From NCBI RefSeq assembly GCF_056712565.1, contig NZ_CM160072.1: a stretch of DNA of 64,000 nucleotides; one strand, written 5' to 3'. Positions 6,244 through 63,648 of this stretch are shown one piece after another (position 1 is the stretch's first letter; every line of letters starts with the position of its first letter). Under the pieces are notes generated by a model. The model was not told the DNA's origin and made no database searches. It saw nothing but the letters and a program-made list of their open reading frames with translations. Both the position numbers and the translations under genes were made by a program.

Positions 6244-6878
6244 AAAAATGCGTCATGAGTCGTATCGGTATTGAGAGTTTATTCAGAAAGTTTGCAGGTA
6301 ACCCTTATAAGCTCCATACCTATACCAGTCAGGAGTCATTTCAGGATGCCATGTCGCGGATCTCGTTTGCAGCGGTCATTTTTTCTTTTTCTGCCATGAG
6401 AAGTGCGCGCAGAGAGGGATTATCCTGCCTGACTGAACTGGCGATTAAGTTTCCGCGTACCCGGCGTTTAGTTATTGCGGATGATGATATTGAAGCTCGG
6501 CTGATTGGTTCATTGTCGCCATCACCGCTGGACGGTGTATTAAGTAAAGCGTCAACGCTGGAGATTTTTCATCAGGAACTCTTTTTGTCATTAAATGGTG
6601 TACGTCAGGCGACCGATCGACTGAACAATCAGTGGTACATTAACCAAAGCCGGACGTTAAGCCCGACGGAGAGAGAAATATTGCGCTTTATGTCGCGTGG
6701 CTACTCAATGACACAAATTGCCGAGCAGCTTAAACGCAATATTAAAACGATCCGTGCACATAAATTTAATGTGATGTCGAAACTGGGCGTCAGTTCTGAT
6801 GCAGGGTTGTTGGAGGCCGCAGATATTCTGTTATGTATGCGGCATTGCGAAACAAGTAATGTGTTGCATCCTTATTAA
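6201..6878 (+). CDS. bglJ: LuxR-type regulator BglJ (RcsB partner)
   Basis: 225-aa ORF overlapping the yjjQ 3' end by 43 nt; C-terminal [48 protein letters not shown]. Confidence 0.9.
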
Positions 6879-6915
6879 TCCGCATGATGCCGGGTTTACT
6901 TCCCCGGCAGTGCTT

Positions 6916-7704
6916 TCATTTCAGCGTACAATCGCCACATTGCTGCACATCCGGTAAGCGATAACGCTGGCAGCAAGTGCGGCGCACCAGCAGGCCGTCG
7001 CGTAGCACCACGGTACGCCAGAGTGGATTATCTTCACCGGTAGTAAGCGTTTTCTCAAAAAAGAGGGCATAGCGCAGCGATTCAACCGTCGCCTCGCCGA
7101 GCAGCTGTTTCATCTCAGTCAGATACCAGTTGATCAAATAACCGGTATTGCTCCAGATAAGTTTGCCGTTAATCTCTCCCGTTGCTTCTAGTGCCTGCAG
7201 AACCGGAACCAGCGCCTGGCTGATTAACGTTTCCATTCGCTGCTGCGGCGAATGTAGTGTTGCGTTTTTATCTTCACACACATCGACCCAGAAACAGGCG
7301 GCGCGTCCGGTTTCGTGAAACTCAACGTGGACATGTTCCGGCGACACATCTAATGCTTTTTCCTGAGTCAGCAGCGCCAGCATTAATGGTGGTACCATCA
7401 GGCCGATATACCATTGCGCCCACAGTGAGATAAGCGGTTTGTTTTCGCGGATCATCAAAGGTTGGTTGCGGTAGATATGATCGGAATAGACCGCGAGTAG
7501 AGAACTTAGCGCATTCGGTGATGACCATTGCGCCAGCGTCATGGCGTTAAGTGGGGCGGGTTCATCCAGGCGGATAAACTCCAGCAAATGTTCACGATGT
7601 TCGGCGATCGTTGCCCGCACGGCTTGTGCAAGCCCAGCATCCTGCGGCTGGAGATGCGTTCGCCAGATAACATCTTCATAGAGCGGTGCGGAACGATAGG
7701 CCAT
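6916..7704 (-). CDS. fhuF: Ferric-siderophore reductase FhuF (2Fe-2S protein)
   Basis: 262-aa ORF; C-terminal cysteine cluster RRTCCQRYRLPDVQQCGDCTLK. Confidence 0.95.
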   Translation of the reverse strand: MAYRSAPLYEDVIWRTHLQPQDAGLAQAVRATIAEHREHLLEFIRLDEPAPLNAMTLAQWSSPNALSSLLAVYSDHIYRNQPLMIRENKPLISLWAQWYIGLMVPPLMLALLTQEKALDVSPEHVHVEFHETGRAACFWVDVCEDKNATLHSPQQRMETLISQALVPVLQALEATGEINGKLIWSNTGYLINWYLTEMKQLLGEATVESLRYALFFEKTLTTGEDNPLWRTVVLRDGLLVRRTCCQRYRLPDVQQCGDCTLK

Positions 7705-7709
7705 AATCG

Positions 7710-7832
7710 TGATAGTAATCTAAATGATAATTATTGCTAATCCTATCGATAGGTTTACCCGATAGCAAGGAATTTCTCTGGCTTGCAAATGATAAAAATT
7801 ATCATATGATATTAGTTATCATTATCAATGAA
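7710..7832. promoter_or_regulatory. Divergent fhuF/yjjZ promoter region with Fur-box-like repeats
   Basis: Several GATAAT/ATCATT hexamer arrays: aatgataattatt (7723-7735), aatgataaaaattatcat (7788-7805), gttatcattatcaatg (7815-7830), resembling the Fur consensus GATAATGATAATCATTATC. Confidence 0.6.
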
Positions 7833-7844
7833 AGAGATGAAACC

Positions 7845-8081
7845 ATGTTGCAACGTACGCTGGGCAGTGGCTGGGGAGTGTTGCTGCCGGGATTGCTGAT
7901 TGCAGGGCTGATGTATGCGGATTTATCGCCGGATCAATGGCGGATTGTCATTCTGATGGGATTGGTATTGACGCCGGTGATGCTGTATCACAAACAGTTA
8001 CGGCATTACGTTTTGCTACCATCGTGCCTGGCGCTTATTGCTGGCATCATGCTGATGATAATGAATTTGAATCAGGGGTGA
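7845..8081 (+). CDS. yjjZ: Small inner-membrane protein YjjZ
   Basis: ORF-track frame 7734..8081; start placed at internal ATG 7845 (MLQRTLGSGWGVLLPGLLIAG, 78 aa) from memory of K-12 YjjZ; two predicted TM helices. Confidence 0.75.
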   Translation: MLQRTLGSGWGVLLPGLLIAGLMYADLSPDQWRIVILMGLVLTPVMLYHKQLRHYVLLPSCLALIAGIMLMIMNLNQG

Positions 8082-8119
8082 TAAAACAGTGACGAGACAA
8101 GAAAAGAAGTAAAGATAAT

Positions 8120-8206
8120 TGGTGCGAGGGGGGGGACTTGAACCCCCACGTCCGTAAGGACACTAACACCTGAAGCTAGCGCGTCTACCAATTCCGCCAC
8201 CTTCGC
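8120..8206 (-). tRNA. leuV: tRNA-Leu (anticodon CAG), 87 nt including CCA
   Basis: Reverse complement reads GCGAAGGTGGCGGAATTGGTAGACGCGCTAGCTTCAGGTGTTAGTGTCCTTACGGACGTGGGGGTTCAAGTCCCCCCCCTCGCACCA; long variable arm typical of tRNA-Leu. Gene name assigned by order. Confidence 0.9.
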
Positions 8207-8240
8207 ACAGTCATCTTACTTTTTTTGATATCGCCTCGTT

Positions 8241-8327
8241 TGGTGCGAGGGGGGGGACTTGAACCCCCACGTCCGTAAGAACACTAACACCTGAAGCTAG
8301 CGCGTCTACCAATTCCGCCACCTTCGC
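8241..8327 (-). tRNA. leuP: tRNA-Leu (anticodon CAG), variant copy
   Basis: Same 87-nt sequence as neighbours except one base (window position 8280, a instead of g; C to U in the tRNA variable arm). Confidence 0.85.
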
Positions 8328-8355
8328 CCAGTGCGAGCAATATCAACGTGGTTTT

Positions 8356-8442
8356 TGGTGCGAGGGGGGGGACTTGAACCCCCACGTCCGTAAGGACACT
8401 AACACCTGAAGCTAGCGCGTCTACCAATTCCGCCACCTTCGC
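8356..8442 (-). tRNA. leuQ: tRNA-Leu (anticodon CAG)
   Basis: Identical to the 8120-8206 copy; promoter-proximal member of the three-gene tRNA operon. Confidence 0.9.
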
Positions 8443-8641
8443 ATACCATCAATTCTTAAAAAGAATTGCTACCACGGAGGCGCATTCTAGTGGTTTTCAG
8501 CTTTTCGTCAATAGTTAATTATCGACAGAGGTGTAATTGCTGGAAAAATATCCATCAGCGGATTGTGGATAATTCGTTTGTCGGTCAGATAAGGCGTGTA
8601 CGCCGCATCCGACACGGTATGCGGCGACATATATCAGATAC

Positions 8642-9673
8642 TCAACCTTTCTTCGCCTGGCGGGTCATAATGGCGCGATACACCTTGAAGCGCCCGGTTT
8701 GCGCGATCACTTCATGGAAGCCAAATGTCTCATCCAGCACGTCCGGGTAAGGCAGGAAGGCGTTCGCTACAATTCGCAACTCGCCGCCGCTGTTCAGATG
8801 ACGCACCGCGCCGCGAATCAGCGTTTGCGCGGCATCCAGGCTGGTTTGCATCCCATCGTGGAACGGCGGGTTGGAGATTATCATATCAAAGCGACCTTTC
8901 ACCTCGGAAAAGACGTTGCTGGCAAAGACTTCACCTTCAACACCGTTGGTCGCAAGTGTTGCGCGGCTGGCTTCTACCGCTGGTGCAGAAACATCACACA
9001 GAGTGAGGCGGATCTTCGGTGAATGGCGCGCAAAAGCAACGGAAAGCACTCCCGCGCCGCAGCCGACATCCAGCACTTTACCTTTCGTGTGTGGAGTTAG
9101 CGTCGAGAGCAGCAACTGACTGCCGACATCCAGACCGTCGCGGCTAAACACGCCCGGCAGTGTTTTGACCGTCAAGCCATCGACGCTGTATTCGCCCCAG
9201 AATTTATTGGCATCAAATACCGGCTGCTTTTCCAGACGACCAAAATAGAGGCCGCAGCGACGGGCGCTGTCTACCTTATTCAACGGCGCATAATCGGCCA
9301 GCATCTGCTCGGCGATGCGCACGCCGCTGCGGTTCTCGCCAACGACAAAAATATCCGTGCCCACCGGAAGCAGAGAAAGTAAATTCATCAACTGGAACTG
9401 GGCTTCCGGTTTGTTCTTCGGCCAGTAGTAGATCAGCGTATCGCAATCTGCGACATCATTCGCCGTGGCGACCAGGCTAAAACGGGCGTTATCCCCCATC
9501 TGGCGGCTTAACACCTGCCAGTGGTGGAATTGCTGGGTATGAGCACGGCTGGCCGCGGTATCTAAACGCGCGGGCAGGTCATCCTGTAAGTCTCCGGCAA
9601 ACAGAATACGGCTTTGTTCGAAATCATCACTGTGACGCAGCAAGACTTCACTTGCCGGGGTAAATGCAGACAT
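8642..9673 (-). CDS. rsmC: 16S rRNA (guanine1207-N2)-methyltransferase
   Basis: 343-aa ORF; SAM motif [13 protein letters not shown] and NPPFH catalytic motif. Confidence 0.95.
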
Positions 9674-59985: not shown

Positions 59986-60747
59986 ATGTCTGCCAAAAGA
60001 CGGCTTCTTATTGCGTGTGCCCTGACAACGATTTTCTATCACCTTCCTGCATATTCTTCATTAGAATATAAAGGTTCCTTTGGCTCAATAAATGCAGGTT
60101 ATGCTGACTGGAATAGTGGCTTCATTAACACTCATCGTGGTGAAGTATGGAAAGTGACTGCAGACTTTGGTGTGAATTTTAAAGAAGCCGAGTTTTACTC
60201 ATTTTATGAAAGCAATGTGCTTAACCATGCCGTAGCGGGGCGTAATCATACCGTTTCTGCTATGACACATGTCAGACTCTTTGACTCCAATATGACTTTC
60301 TTTGGCAAGATCTATGGTCAATGGGATAACTCATGGGGTGACGATCTTGATATGTTTTATGGTTTGGGCTACCTCGGCTGGAATGGTTCATGGGGGTTTT
60401 TTAAACCGTATATTGGATTACATAATCAATCTGGAGACTACGTCTCAGCCAAATATGGACAAACAAATGGCTGGAATGGTTATGTTGTTGGCTGGACAGC
60501 AGTATTACCTTTTACGTTATTTGACGAAAAATTTGTTTTATCTAACTGGAATGAAATAGAACTGGACAGAAATGATGCCTATGCGGAACAACAATTTGGT
60601 CGGAATGGGCTAAATGGCGGTTTAACAGTAGCCTGGAAGTTCTATCCTCGCTGGAAAGCCAGTGTGACGTGGCGTTATTTCGATAATAAGTTGGGCTACG
60701 ATGGTTTTGGCGATCAAATGATTTATATGCTTGGTTATGATTTCTAA
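59986..60747 (+). CDS. Tsx/OmpK-family outer-membrane channel
   Basis: 253-aa ORF; signal peptide MSAKRRLLIACALTTIFYHLPAYS; aromatic/Gly-rich beta-strand pattern (WNGSWGFFKPYIG; WNGYVVGWTAV); C-terminal ...MLGYDF resembling Tsx ...GYNF; RBS tggagag; AT-rich. Confidence 0.7.
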   Translation: MSAKRRLLIACALTTIFYHLPAYSSLEYKGSFGSINAGYADWNSGFINTHRGEVWKVTADFGVNFKEAEFYSFYESNVLNHAVAGRNHTVSAMTHVRLFDSNMTFFGKIYGQWDNSWGDDLDMFYGLGYLGWNGSWGFFKPYIGLHNQSGDYVSAKYGQTNGWNGYVVGWTAVLPFTLFDEKFVLSNWNEIELDRNDAYAEQQFGRNGLNGGLTVAWKFYPRWKASVTWRYFDNKLGYDGFGDQMIYMLGYDF

Positions 60748-60766
60748 TTTTCATCAGGGAATAATT

Positions 60767-62260
60767 ATGCAGAAAACATTAATGGCCAGTTTGATCGGCC
60801 TTGCAGTTTGCACAGGGAATGCTTTTAATCCAGTCGTAGCTGCCGAGACTAAACAACCCAATTTAGTCATCATTATGGCGGATGATTTAGGCTATGGTGA
60901 TTTAGCAACATATGGACATCAGATCGTTAAAACACCCAATATTGACAGGCTTGCCCAGGAGGGCGTCAAATTTACTGACTACTATGCACCAGCTCCCTTA
61001 AGTTCTCCTTCGCGGGCGGGGTTATTAACGGGGCGGATGCCATTTCGTACCGGCATACGTTCATGGATCCCAACGGGAAAAGATGTGGCATTAGGGCGTA
61101 ATGAACTCACGATTGCTAATCTACTCAAAGCGCAAGGGTATGACACGGCCATGATGGGTAAGCTGCATCTGAATGCAGGCGGCGATCGCACCGATCAGCC
61201 GCAGGCAAAAGATATGGGCTTTGATTACTCACTGGTTAATACGGCGGGTTTTGTTACCGACGCCACGCTGGATAACGCTAAAGAACGCCCGCGTTATGGC
61301 ATGGTTTACCCGACAGGCTGGCTACGTAACGGGCAACCCACTCCACGAGCCGATAAAATGAGCGGTGAGTATGTCAGTTCGGAAGTCGTCAACTGGCTGG
61401 ATAACAAAAAGGACAGCAAGCCTTTCTTCCTCTATGTTGCTTTTACCGAAGTGCATAGCCCCCTGGCTTCGCCCAAAAAATACCTCGACATGTACTCACA
61501 ATATATGAGCGCGTATCAGAAGCAGCATCCTGATTTATTTTATGGCGACTGGGCAGACAAACCCTGGCGTGGTGTGGGGGAATATTATGCCAATATCAGC
61601 TATCTGGATGCACAGGTTGGAAAAGTGCTGGATAAAATCAAAGCGATGGGTGAAGAAGATAACACAATCGTTATTTTTACCAGTGATAACGGTCCGGTAA
61701 CGCGTGAAGCGCGCAAAGTGTATGAGCTGAATTTGGCAGGGGAAACGGATGGATTACGCGGTCGCAAGGATAACCTTTGGGAAGGCGGAATTCGTGTTCC
61801 AGCCATTATTAAATATGGTAAACATCTACCACAGGGAATGGTTTCAGATACACCCGTTTATGGTCTGGACTGGATGCCTACTTTAGCGAAAATGATGAAC
61901 TTCAAATTACCTACAGACCGTACTTTCGATGGTGAATCGCTGGTTCCTGTTCTTGAGCAAAAAGCATTGAAACGCGAAAAGCCATTAATTTTCGGGATTG
62001 ATATGCCATTCCAGGATGATCCAACCGATGAATGGGCGATCCGTGATGGTGACTGGAAGATGATTATCGATCGCAATAATAAACCGAAATATCTCTACAA
62101 TCTGAAATCTGATCGTTATGAAACACTTAATCTGATCGGTAAAAAACCAGATATTGAAAAACAGATGTATGGTAAGTTTTTAAAATATAAAACTGATATT
62201 GATAATGATTCTCTAATGAAAGCCAGAGGTGATAAACCAGAAGCGGTGACCTGGGGCTAA
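60767..62260 (+). CDS. Periplasmic sulfatase, Ser-type (S-x-P-S-R)
   Basis: ORF-track frame 60731..62260; ATG at 60767 with RBS aggga; signal peptide MQKTLMASLIGLAVCTGNAFNPVVAAE; N-terminal IIMADDLGYGD and signature APAPLSSPSRAGLLTGR; 19 bp after the channel gene. Confidence 0.85.
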   Translation: MQKTLMASLIGLAVCTGNAFNPVVAAETKQPNLVIIMADDLGYGDLATYGHQIVKTPNIDRLAQEGVKFTDYYAPAPLSSPSRAGLLTGRMPFRTGIRSWIPTGKDVALGRNELTIANLLKAQGYDTAMMGKLHLNAGGDRTDQPQAKDMGFDYSLVNTAGFVTDATLDNAKERPRYGMVYPTGWLRNGQPTPRADKMSGEYVSSEVVNWLDNKKDSKPFFLYVAFTEVHSPLASPKKYLDMYSQYMSAYQKQHPDLFYGDWADKPWRGVGEYYANISYLDAQVGKVLDKIKAMGEEDNTIVIFTSDNGPVTREARKVYELNLAGETDGLRGRKDNLWEGGIRVPAIIKYGKHLPQGMVSDTPVYGLDWMPTLAKMMNFKLPTDRTFDGESLVPVLEQKALKREKPLIFGIDMPFQDDPTDEWAIRDGDWKMIIDRNNKPKYLYNLKSDRYETLNLIGKKPDIEKQMYGKFLKYKTDIDNDSLMKARGDKPEAVTWG

Positions 62261-62346: not shown

Positions 62347-62388
62347 CGTTGAACAATATCAAGATACGGCTATTCGCAGGGAGTGGAT

Positions 62389-63648
62389 ATGTTTACCAAC
62401 GTAAATGTTGATTGTTGCAAAACACCAGGATGTAAAAACCTGGGGTTGCTGAATAGCCAGGATTATGTCGCACAGGGTAAAAATATTTTATGCCGTGAAT
62501 GTGGTTACTTGTTTCCAGTGATATCTGAACAGTCGCTTAATATTTATCGTAATATTGTGAATCACTCCTGGAGAGGTTTGATTTGCCAATGTTCAACTTG
62601 CGGAGGCACGTCCCTCAAAAAATATGGATATTCTGCACAAGGCCAGAGAAGAATGTATTGCCATCATTGTGAGAAAACATTTATCACTCTGGAACATGTA
62701 ATTACCACACCACGAGGAGCCCTGTTAGCATTGATGATTGAGCAAGGGGAGGCACTTGCGGATATCAGAAAGTCATTACTTCTTAACAGCACTGGACTTA
62801 GCCGTGAACTGTTAAAATTAGCGCGTGAAGCAAACTATAAAGAAAGTCGACAGTGTTTCCCAGCTTCTGATATTACCCTGAGTACCCGCGCTTTTCGCGT
62901 CAAGTATAATGGTAGCAATAACTCTCTTTATGCTCTTGTTACCGCAGAAGAACAAAGCGGCAGGGTGGTTGCCATCTCAACCAATTACTCCCCATCTGCC
63001 GTAGAGCAACATTATCAATACACATCGAACTATGAAGAGCGTATGTCTCCAGGGACGCTGGCACATCATGTCCAGCGCAAAGAGTTACTTACTATGCGGC
63101 GGGATACCTTGTTTGATATTGATTACGGCCCGGCAGTTTTACATCAAAACGATCCGGGAATGTTGGTAAAACCGGTTCTTCCGGCATATCGTCATTTTGA
63201 ACTGGTCAGAATACTGACCGATGAGCATTCCAACAACGTTCAGCATTACCTTGATCACGAATGCTTTATATTGGGCGGCTGCCTGATGGCTAATTTGCAG
63301 CATATTCATCAAGGTCGCTGCCATATTTCCTTTGTCAAAGAGCGCGGTGTGGCACCCGCCACCATTGATTTTCCACCGCGATTATTCCTTAGTGGTGGGG
63401 TACGAAATAATGTCTGGCGTGCATTTTCTAACCGCAATTATTCAATGGCTGTATGCAATCTCACTGGCAGTAAGAAAGTCCGCGAGATGCGGCATGCAAC
63501 ATTGAACAGTGCGACGCGTTTTATCCACTTTGTGGAGAACCATCCTTTCCTTATATCATTGAACCGAATGTCTCCTGCGAATGTCGTTTCTACATTAGAT
63601 ATCCTCAAACATCTGTGGAATAAAAAACTAGAGCATGGAACAATTTAA
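62389..63648 (+). CDS. Hypothetical cysteine-rich protein with two N-terminal transposase-type zinc ribbons
   Basis: ORF-track frame 62383..63648; ATG at 62389 preceded by gcagggag RBS; 419 aa; ribbon 1 CCKTPGC-x19-CREC, ribbon 2 CQCSTCGG-x17-CHHCEKTF (G-x-Q-R-x-x-C-x-x-C-x-K-T-F), followed by about 300 aa with no motif I can assign. Confidence 0.6.
   Translation: MFTNVNVDCCKTPGCKNLGLLNSQDYVAQGKNILCRECGYLFPVISEQSLNIYRNIVNHSWRGLICQCSTCGGTSLKKYGYSAQGQRRMYCHHCEKTFITLEHVITTPRGALLALMIEQGEALADIRKSLLLNSTGLSRELLKLAREANYKESRQCFPASDITLSTRAFRVKYNGSNNSLYALVTAEEQSGRVVAISTNYSPSAVEQHYQYTSNYEERMSPGTLAHHVQRKELLTMRRDTLFDIDYGPAVLHQNDPGMLVKPVLPAYRHFELVRILTDEHSNNVQHYLDHECFILGGCLMANLQHIHQGRCHISFVKERGVAPATIDFPPRLFLSGGVRNNVWRAFSNRNYSMAVCNLTGSKKVREMRHATLNSATRFIHFVENHPFLISLNRMSPANVVSTLDILKHLWNKKLEHGTI

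Follow-up and report, generated by a model that had tools for sequence, protein, structure and literature searches.

The 140-bp spacer between fhuF and yjjZ of Escherichia coli very probably holds two back-to-back sigma-70 promoters, each with a Fur operator of its own, and seems to owe its compact form to the loss of a segment carrying a GGDEF gene. The window that we analyzed, a stretch of 64,000 nucleotides, is E. coli DNA of the B2 type: positions 7400 to 8150 match NU14 and APEC O18 at 100% identity, and this stretch is found in 5,424 of 5,426 complete E. coli genomes. The open reading frames and the RefSeq annotation place the spacer at 7705-7844, exactly where the first-pass annotation of the sequence had placed it. 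On the minus strand, fhuF (6916-7704, ATG at 7704) encodes the siderophore-iron reductase, with the Pfam domains FhuF and FhuF_C; on the plus strand, yjjZ (7845-8081, ATG at 7845) encodes a 78-aa DUF1435 membrane protein. Directly downstream of yjjZ lie three tRNA-Leu genes in tandem (leuV, leuP, and leuQ; 8123-8442, minus strand). These three were matched in an Rfam scan of positions 6500 to 9000 (E up to 1), which found no family in the spacer; a sub-threshold naRNA4/REP-like match was seen at 8583-8622, before rsmC, with 29.8 bits against a gathering score of 59.5.

Fur sites in the fhuF-yjjZ spacer

At least three overlapping GATAAT/ATCATT arrays had been read in the spacer at first pass. 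The words are indeed present (GATAAT at 7726, ATTATC at 7798 and 7821, ATCATT at 7818), and nine hexamers were counted with up to one mismatch, compared to 3.5 ± 1.9 in composition-preserving shuffles (p ~0.008), but this count put the spacer no higher than rank 28 when all 140-bp windows of the 64 kb were compared. Since hexamer counting was thus weakly discriminating, a 19-bp position weight matrix (PWM) was used instead. It was derived from 15 K-12 Fur sites that were footprinted or gel-shifted according to Chen et al. 2007 (PMC2189734), namely, those of fhuA, yahA, fepA-fes, fepD-entS, entC, gpmA, nohA, fadD, yoeA, cir, exbB, ryhB, sodA, fecA, and fecI, with fhuF left out. The oppA site was omitted because it adjoins an IS5 difference between two versions of the genome. 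Site centers were taken from Tables 3 and 4 of the same paper, moved to NC_000913.3, and each checked against its gene-relative position; the extracted 19-mers, all visibly aligned Fur boxes, gave a symmetric log-odds matrix with the consensus AATGATAATCATTATCATT and an information content of 20 bits.

The PWM revealed five sites in the spacer, grouped into two clusters about 65 bp apart. The strong cluster (7788-7829) is made up of site A (AATGATAAAAATTATCATA, 7788-7806, center 7797, 22.0 bits), site B (TATGATATTAGTTATCATT, 7805-7823, center 7814, 21.8 bits), and site C (7811-7829, center 7820, 12.4 bits), and the weak cluster (7717-7741) is made up of site D (AATGATAATTATTGCTAAT, 7723-7741, center 7732, 14.3 bits) and site E (7717-7735, center 7726, 8.4 bits). 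An additional site at 7817 scored 3.0 bits. In both overlapping pairs, B and C (7814/7820) and E and D (7726/7732), the centers are offset by 6 bp, as for multi-dimer Fur binding. Site A is the strongest site of Chen et al. 2007, 4603779 in NC_000913.2 (PMC2189734). The leave-one-out scores of the 15 verified training sites ranged from 17.0 to 27.6 bits, and sites A and B, which fall within this range, are thus both typical of real operators. They are also the top two PWM positions of the whole 64 kb, and the spacer came first among all 140-bp windows, with 81.9 summed positive bits versus 39.7 for the runner-up, so that the weight-matrix scoring suggested by the first-pass annotation turned out in its favor. 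When the spacer was shuffled 20,000 times with its dinucleotides preserved, a top score of 21.8 bits was attained by 0.075% of the shuffles, and not one shuffle contained four or more sites of at least 12 bits. The classical 19-bp Fur consensus, with up to three mismatches, matched at 7808-7826; the window holds two such matches, compared to 0.01 expected. The Fur sites of the first-pass annotation are therefore real, but its words are sparse, and what it described as overlapping arrays are two separate clusters rather than a single dense array.

We give next to no credence to the idea that these motifs arise from the A+T richness of promoter DNA or from generic nucleoid-protein binding and are not specific Fur operators. 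The spacer does contain 71% A+T, compared to 49% across the window in a composition count, and the hexamer enrichment with its rank of 28 was modest. However, the cluster was never reproduced by shuffles that preserve dinucleotides, and bases that our search pattern did not require are invariant in Escherichia and nine further named genera (see below). This reading is already refuted by published footprints, ChIP-exo peaks, and derepression upon fur deletion.

The region had been scanned, gel-shifted, and DNase I-footprinted in K-12 by Chen et al. 2007 (PMC2189734) as the locus fhuF1/fhuF2, which is also that of the Fur titration assay with fhuF::lacZ. The K-12 locus has the same spacer length, the same promoters, and five predicted sites at near-equal scores. 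It differs from the window by 8 substitutions in 191 aligned nucleotides, with no indels; seven of these are inside the spacer, including 7732 and 7814, both in Fur sites, and 7743, in the fhuF -10 hexamer (TATGAT there and TAGGAT here). Because of T in place of the K-12 G at 7732, site E scores 8.4 bits in the window instead of 5.3, while A in place of G at 7814 brings site C down from 15.0 to 12.4 bits. Applied to the K-12 allele, our PWM gave 22.0, 22.3, and 15.0 bits for the strong cluster and 14.8 and 5.3 bits for the weak one, reproducing the published pattern (22.3/20.8/16.1 and 14.6/9.3 bits, respectively; PMC2189734). With 50 nM Fur-Mn2+, gel shifts and DNase I footprints on the K-12 allele gave a high-affinity footprint, fhuF1 (4603763-4603815), and a low-affinity footprint, fhuF2 (4603680-4603733), the two being separate, with unprotected DNA between them (PMC2189734, Table 3). 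As the alignment between K-12 and the window is free of indels, these footprints fall at 7781-7833 and 7698-7751, respectively. A natural allele with an 18-bp expansion was seen in E. coli YZLc4-1: three additional TTATCA hexamers lie within the strong cluster, aligning to window positions 7816-7827, which makes the array between the yjjZ -10 hexamer and the ATG longer. This expansion looks like repeat slippage on the hexamer unit.

Fur occupies the spacer in vivo. In iron-replete MG1655, a ChIP-exo Fur peak lies at 4603779-4603794, corresponding to window positions 7797-7812, and iron-replete W3110 and CFT073 (B2) have peaks in the spacer that were each assigned to both fhuF and yjjZ (PMC10164565). 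Both genes belong to the 36-gene core Fur regulon, in which yjjZ is ranked first (PMC10164565). Upon deletion of fur in nine strains, the log2 fold change was 5.5 to 11.3 for yjjZ (6.41 in CFT073) and 2.0 to 8.5 for fhuF (4.71 in CFT073), and derepression was greater for yjjZ than for fhuF in eight of the nine (PMC10164565). The larger fold change of yjjZ could stem from the strength of its promoter instead of the affinity of its operator. In addition, yjjZ is within CFT073's direct Fur regulon (Banerjee et al. 2020), and yjjZ of Salmonella is iron and Fur regulated. In the MG1655 sheet of supplementary file 3 of PMC10164565, peak P135, labeled fhuF (b4367), is found at 4593337-4593349, about 10 kb off fhuF, while P137, the peak truly in the fhuF-yjjZ spacer, carries an assignment to yjjZ alone; the table probably contains an error of assignment here. 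Iron and Fur control of both divergent genes, as proposed at first pass, is thus supported by the PWM on this allele and by published footprints, ChIP-exo, and fur-deletion derepression on near-identical alleles. The accompanying remark that such control was to be expected from known fhuF regulation was also correct, since the locus had already been footprinted (PMC2189734) and placed in the core Fur regulon (PMC10164565). The Fur operators of the spacer are already known in detail, and nothing in them is new for iron regulation itself.

Proposed assignment of the two operators to the two promoters

A consensus scan identified the yjjZ promoter on the plus strand (7783-7810) as TTGCAA (7783-7788) and TATGAT (7805-7810) separated by 16 bp, with the start at 7818. 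The same hexamers and spacing were predicted in PMC3946193, and the start itself, 4,605,777 in NC_000913.3, was detected by in vitro ROSE and also in a strain lacking fur, whereas the wild type did not show it (PMC10301672). On the minus strand, the fhuF promoter (7734-7768), whose hexamers were read from the sequence, consists of a -35 TTGCTA (7768-7763) and a -10 TAGGAT (7745-7740), with starts at 7735 and 7734 according to the legend of Fig. 5 of PMC2189734, transferred through the same indel-free alignment. This promoter block is conserved across genera in our alignment. Its -10 hexamer (7740-7745) is polymorphic: TAGGAT is found here and in most other genera, TATGAT is found in K-12, and TAGTAT is found in E. 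albertii and E. whittamii. The K-12 hexamer being nearer the consensus, the basal strength of the fhuF promoter may vary among lineages.

In reviews, fhuF is listed as repressed by oxidized OxyR (PMC8115020). We searched for four ATAG-type elements spaced as ATAGnTnnnAnCTAT-n7-ATAGnTnnnAnCTAT. As might suit an OxyR-repressed promoter, the best match to this 37-bp consensus (7727-7763) lies over the fhuF -10 and start, but it has only 14 of the 20 specified bases, is tied with two unrelated positions in the window, and is weak alone.

Each cluster lies over one core promoter. Relative to the yjjZ start at 7818, sites A to C extend from -30 to +12, with site A between the -35 and -10 hexamers (center at -21), site B over the -10 hexamer and the transcription start (center at -4), and site C reaching +12. 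Relative to the fhuF start at 7735, sites D and E extend from -6 to +19, site D covering the start and the edge of the -10 hexamer. The published footprints show the same arrangement, fhuF1 extending from -37 to +15 of the yjjZ promoter and fhuF2 from -17 to +37 of the fhuF promoter. Seen from fhuF, the strong footprint is at -46 to -98 from the start, outside the core promoter, and the fhuF -35 (7763-7768) and -10 (7740-7745) hexamers are both outside the strong cluster. Judging from position and phylogeny, we infer that the strong cluster serves primarily as the operator of yjjZ, and the weak cluster as that of fhuF. The notion of one array shared by both genes thus holds insofar as both are under Fur control, but the spacer is divided into two operator modules, one per promoter.

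According to this model, Fe2+-Fur dimers would fill the three overlapping 19-bp sites at 7788-7829 when iron is sufficient, and as the yjjZ promoter would thus be covered, from between its -35 and -10 hexamers to beyond +1, RNA polymerase would be excluded and yjjZ almost silent. Fur would also sit on the weaker pair at 7717-7741, over the fhuF start and the edge of its -10 hexamer, and fhuF would be repressed less tightly. Upon iron starvation, Fur would be released and both promoters would fire. In vitro binding of Fur at both clusters, in vivo occupancy, derepression of both genes, and both transcription starts have been shown experimentally in published work on K-12, CFT073, and other strains; the window allele differs from that of K-12 at seven positions of the spacer. 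A strong module at yjjZ fits the position of this gene as the most tightly repressed of the core regulon, and a weak module at fhuF agrees with the fact that fhuF::lacZ has long been used as a reporter sensitive to titration (PMC2189734). The strong cluster may nevertheless help to repress fhuF too; it could do so by cooperative spreading of Fur, by overlap with the zone of an fhuF upstream element, or through a mirror-image upstream promoter.

One could instead regard the spacer as containing one shared operator, in which the strong cluster (fhuF1) is the principal site for both genes and, from 46 to 98 bp upstream of the fhuF start, nucleates Fur polymerization or looping to an accessory weak site. 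The strong cluster was originally described as a high-affinity fhuF site (PMC2189734), a single ChIP-exo peak was assigned to both genes in W3110 and in CFT073 (PMC10164565), other promoters are known to have extended "secondary" Fur footprints (PMC2189734), and the centers of the strong and weak clusters, 65 bp apart, are separated by about six helical turns. However, the strong footprint matches the core promoter of yjjZ exactly, the two footprints are separated by unprotected DNA, and five other genera keep only the proximal site at fhuF, the strong cluster being 1.4 kb off, beyond a gene. We consider a shared operator of this kind rather improbable.

A further possibility is that fhuF has a second promoter, farther upstream, which is also under the control of the strong cluster. 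Sites A and B form an imperfect palindrome of 46 bp (7783-7828), and the minus strand in consequence carries a promoter-like match in mirror image, TTGATA at 7828-7823 and TATGAT at 7806-7801, with 10 of 12 consensus positions. The second promoter would use this TTGATA with either TATGAT or GATAAT, start near 7794, and perhaps be a relic of the promoter of a lost GGDEF gene; in other genera, such a gene is divergent from yjjZ at the same position. The combination TTGATA-19-GATAAT was, moreover, predicted as the fhuF promoter in a fragment from an RNA polymerase SELEX (Shimada et al. 2014). Against this stand the mapped fhuF starts, which are only 7735 and 7734 (PMC2189734), and the resemblance in composition of Fur boxes to -10 hexamers: our scan returned two matches, compared to 1.0 ± 1.0 in shuffles. 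A second promoter of this type is thus unlikely, and we retain the model of two promoters, each under its own operator.

The locus in other genera and the origin of the compact spacer

The diversity of E. coli is too shallow for phylogenetic footprinting, as nearly all of the 5,424 genomes are at least 95% identical over the region. We therefore scanned species-representative genomes with a DNA pattern, the double-box core TGATAANNNTTATCANNTGATANNNNTTATCA, and retrieved 30 loci. Since retrieval required the double box, conservation of its specified bases is by construction, and since one changed base suffices for exclusion, the sample is restricted to species with the exact pattern and excludes, for example, Salmonella. 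In the 21 enterobacterial loci, a yjjZ homologue without exception followed the pattern at a constant distance, the Fur sites being at -48, -31, and -25 relative to the yjjZ ATG. At the other nine loci (Bacteroidota, Aeromonadaceae, Brenneria, and others), fhuF and yjjZ were absent. Outside the search pattern, the TA that opens the yjjZ -10 hexamer (7805-7806) and TTATC (7822-7826) were invariant in Escherichia and nine further named genera. Also outside the pattern, fhuF had its own single Fur site, 28 to 34 bp upstream of its ATG and scoring 14.8 to 21.7 bits, in every locus that included the gene.

The distance between the two genes differed. In five Escherichia species, the spacer measured 140 bp, whereas the start codons were 1,410 to 1,425 bp apart in all nine non-Escherichia loci that reached fhuF (Pseudocitrobacter, Enterobacter, Raoultella, Citrobacter, Yokenella, and one Citrobacter-like contig labeled Chryseobacterium). 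The last of these, from Chryseobacterium sp. 18061 (L044), has an fhuF-GGDEF-yjjZ locus almost identical to that of "Citrobacter sp. 18056" (L037), and the genome is probably mislabeled or contaminated. In all 15 non-Escherichia loci that extended far enough, a set that adds Pluralibacter, Klebsiella, and an unclassified Enterobacteriaceae genome, a gene for a 354-aa membrane GGDEF diguanylate cyclase (Pfam PF00990, E = 1.4e-46) was found upstream of yjjZ (2882-3946 in L017; homologues in L018, L020, L022, L025, L029, L030, L031, L036, L037, L038, L040, L041, L042, and L044). Where its full length was seen, this gene was on the fhuF strand and divergent from yjjZ across the strong Fur cluster, and it may itself be iron regulated. 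It was absent from the window and from all Escherichia loci of the scan. It may correspond to STM4551 of Salmonella. In the literature, STM4551 has been called "Salmonella-specific." The GGDEF-yjjZ spacers of all non-Escherichia genera also contain a nearly invariant block, CAATTTATCACCTT, about 115 bp upstream of the yjjZ ATG (near 4080 in L017), which has one substitution in Yokenella and is absent from Escherichia. This block may be the promoter of the GGDEF gene or the site of a regulator.

Alignment to the other genera showed two stretches of homology. On the fhuF side, homology runs from the ATG to about 7775, including the Fur site and the -10 and -35 blocks; on the yjjZ side, it begins at about 7782 and includes the -35 hexamer. 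As homology ends at about 7775 and resumes at about 7782, the junction would be located within some 6 bp, at 7776-7781, where the segment with the GGDEF gene is missing by both alignments and gene content. Because the long form is present in all non-Escherichia genera sampled, parsimony favors one loss, in the Escherichia lineage. On these sequence comparisons, the compact Escherichia spacer looks like a deletion fusion that joined two formerly separate operator-promoter modules. The ancestral strong operator would have been in a divergent spacer common to yjjZ and the GGDEF gene, as it is in other genera today. On balance, we believe, with some reserve, that the "high-affinity fhuF Fur site" was ancestrally the yjjZ operator and that only in Escherichia was it brought beside fhuF, when the GGDEF gene was lost in a deletion of about 1.27 kb that fused the modules to within about 6 bp.

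Related promoters, further Fur-like sites, and implications

Among known systems, the enterobactin pairs fepA-fes, fepB-entC, and fepD-entS likewise have iron-regulated promoters placed back to back and clusters of Fur sites that overlap at a spacing of 6 bp. At fepA-fes and fepD-entS, the two promoters are served by one cluster. The fhuF-yjjZ spacer departs from this shared-operator arrangement of the fepA-fes type in that two clusters of unequal affinity, 65 bp apart, each lie over one core promoter, and they appear to have been joined by a lineage-specific deletion. The aerobactin promoter of iucA also binds multiple overlapping Fur dimers on repeated hexamer-like units, but its array is longer, with 13 sequence walkers versus 3 sites at fhuF-yjjZ (PMC2189734).

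Elsewhere in the window, two Fur-like sites 6 bp apart were found at 62192-62216, with 17.4 and 9.8 bits, the former being the third-best score of the window. They are at the 3' end of a sulfatase-family open reading frame (60731-62260) and 167 bp upstream of an open reading frame of 421 aa (62383-63648) for which Pfam gave no match. The region is accessory, being present in 1,277 of 5,426 E. coli genomes, and from its sequence it could be an unrecognized Fur-controlled promoter. Another Fur-like site, GATGATAATGAATTTGAAT (8054-8072, 14.4 bits), is in the final codons of yjjZ. A shuffled window is expected to hold about 0.28 sites scoring 14 bits or more, the C-terminal residues of YjjZ differ in the two sequences translated from other genera (Pseudocitrobacter and Enterobacter), and this site is probably due to chance.

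For the reading of DNA, the locus shows that a sequence-only examination was able to pick out a genuine, experimentally established Fur-controlled divergent promoter. For E. coli, the division into modules would give the strong operator to yjjZ, the gene that Fur represses most tightly in this organism, and leave fhuF to rely on a weak proximal site. If the fusion took place as we propose, the iron response of E. coli fhuF, and with it the behavior of the classic fhuF::lacZ Fur titration reporter, would be in part the product of a lineage-specific event; the footprints of two RNA polymerases would now overlap, and the mirror-image promoter may read into fhuF. The same deletion seemingly removed from Escherichia a c-di-GMP synthase gene that related genera have kept.
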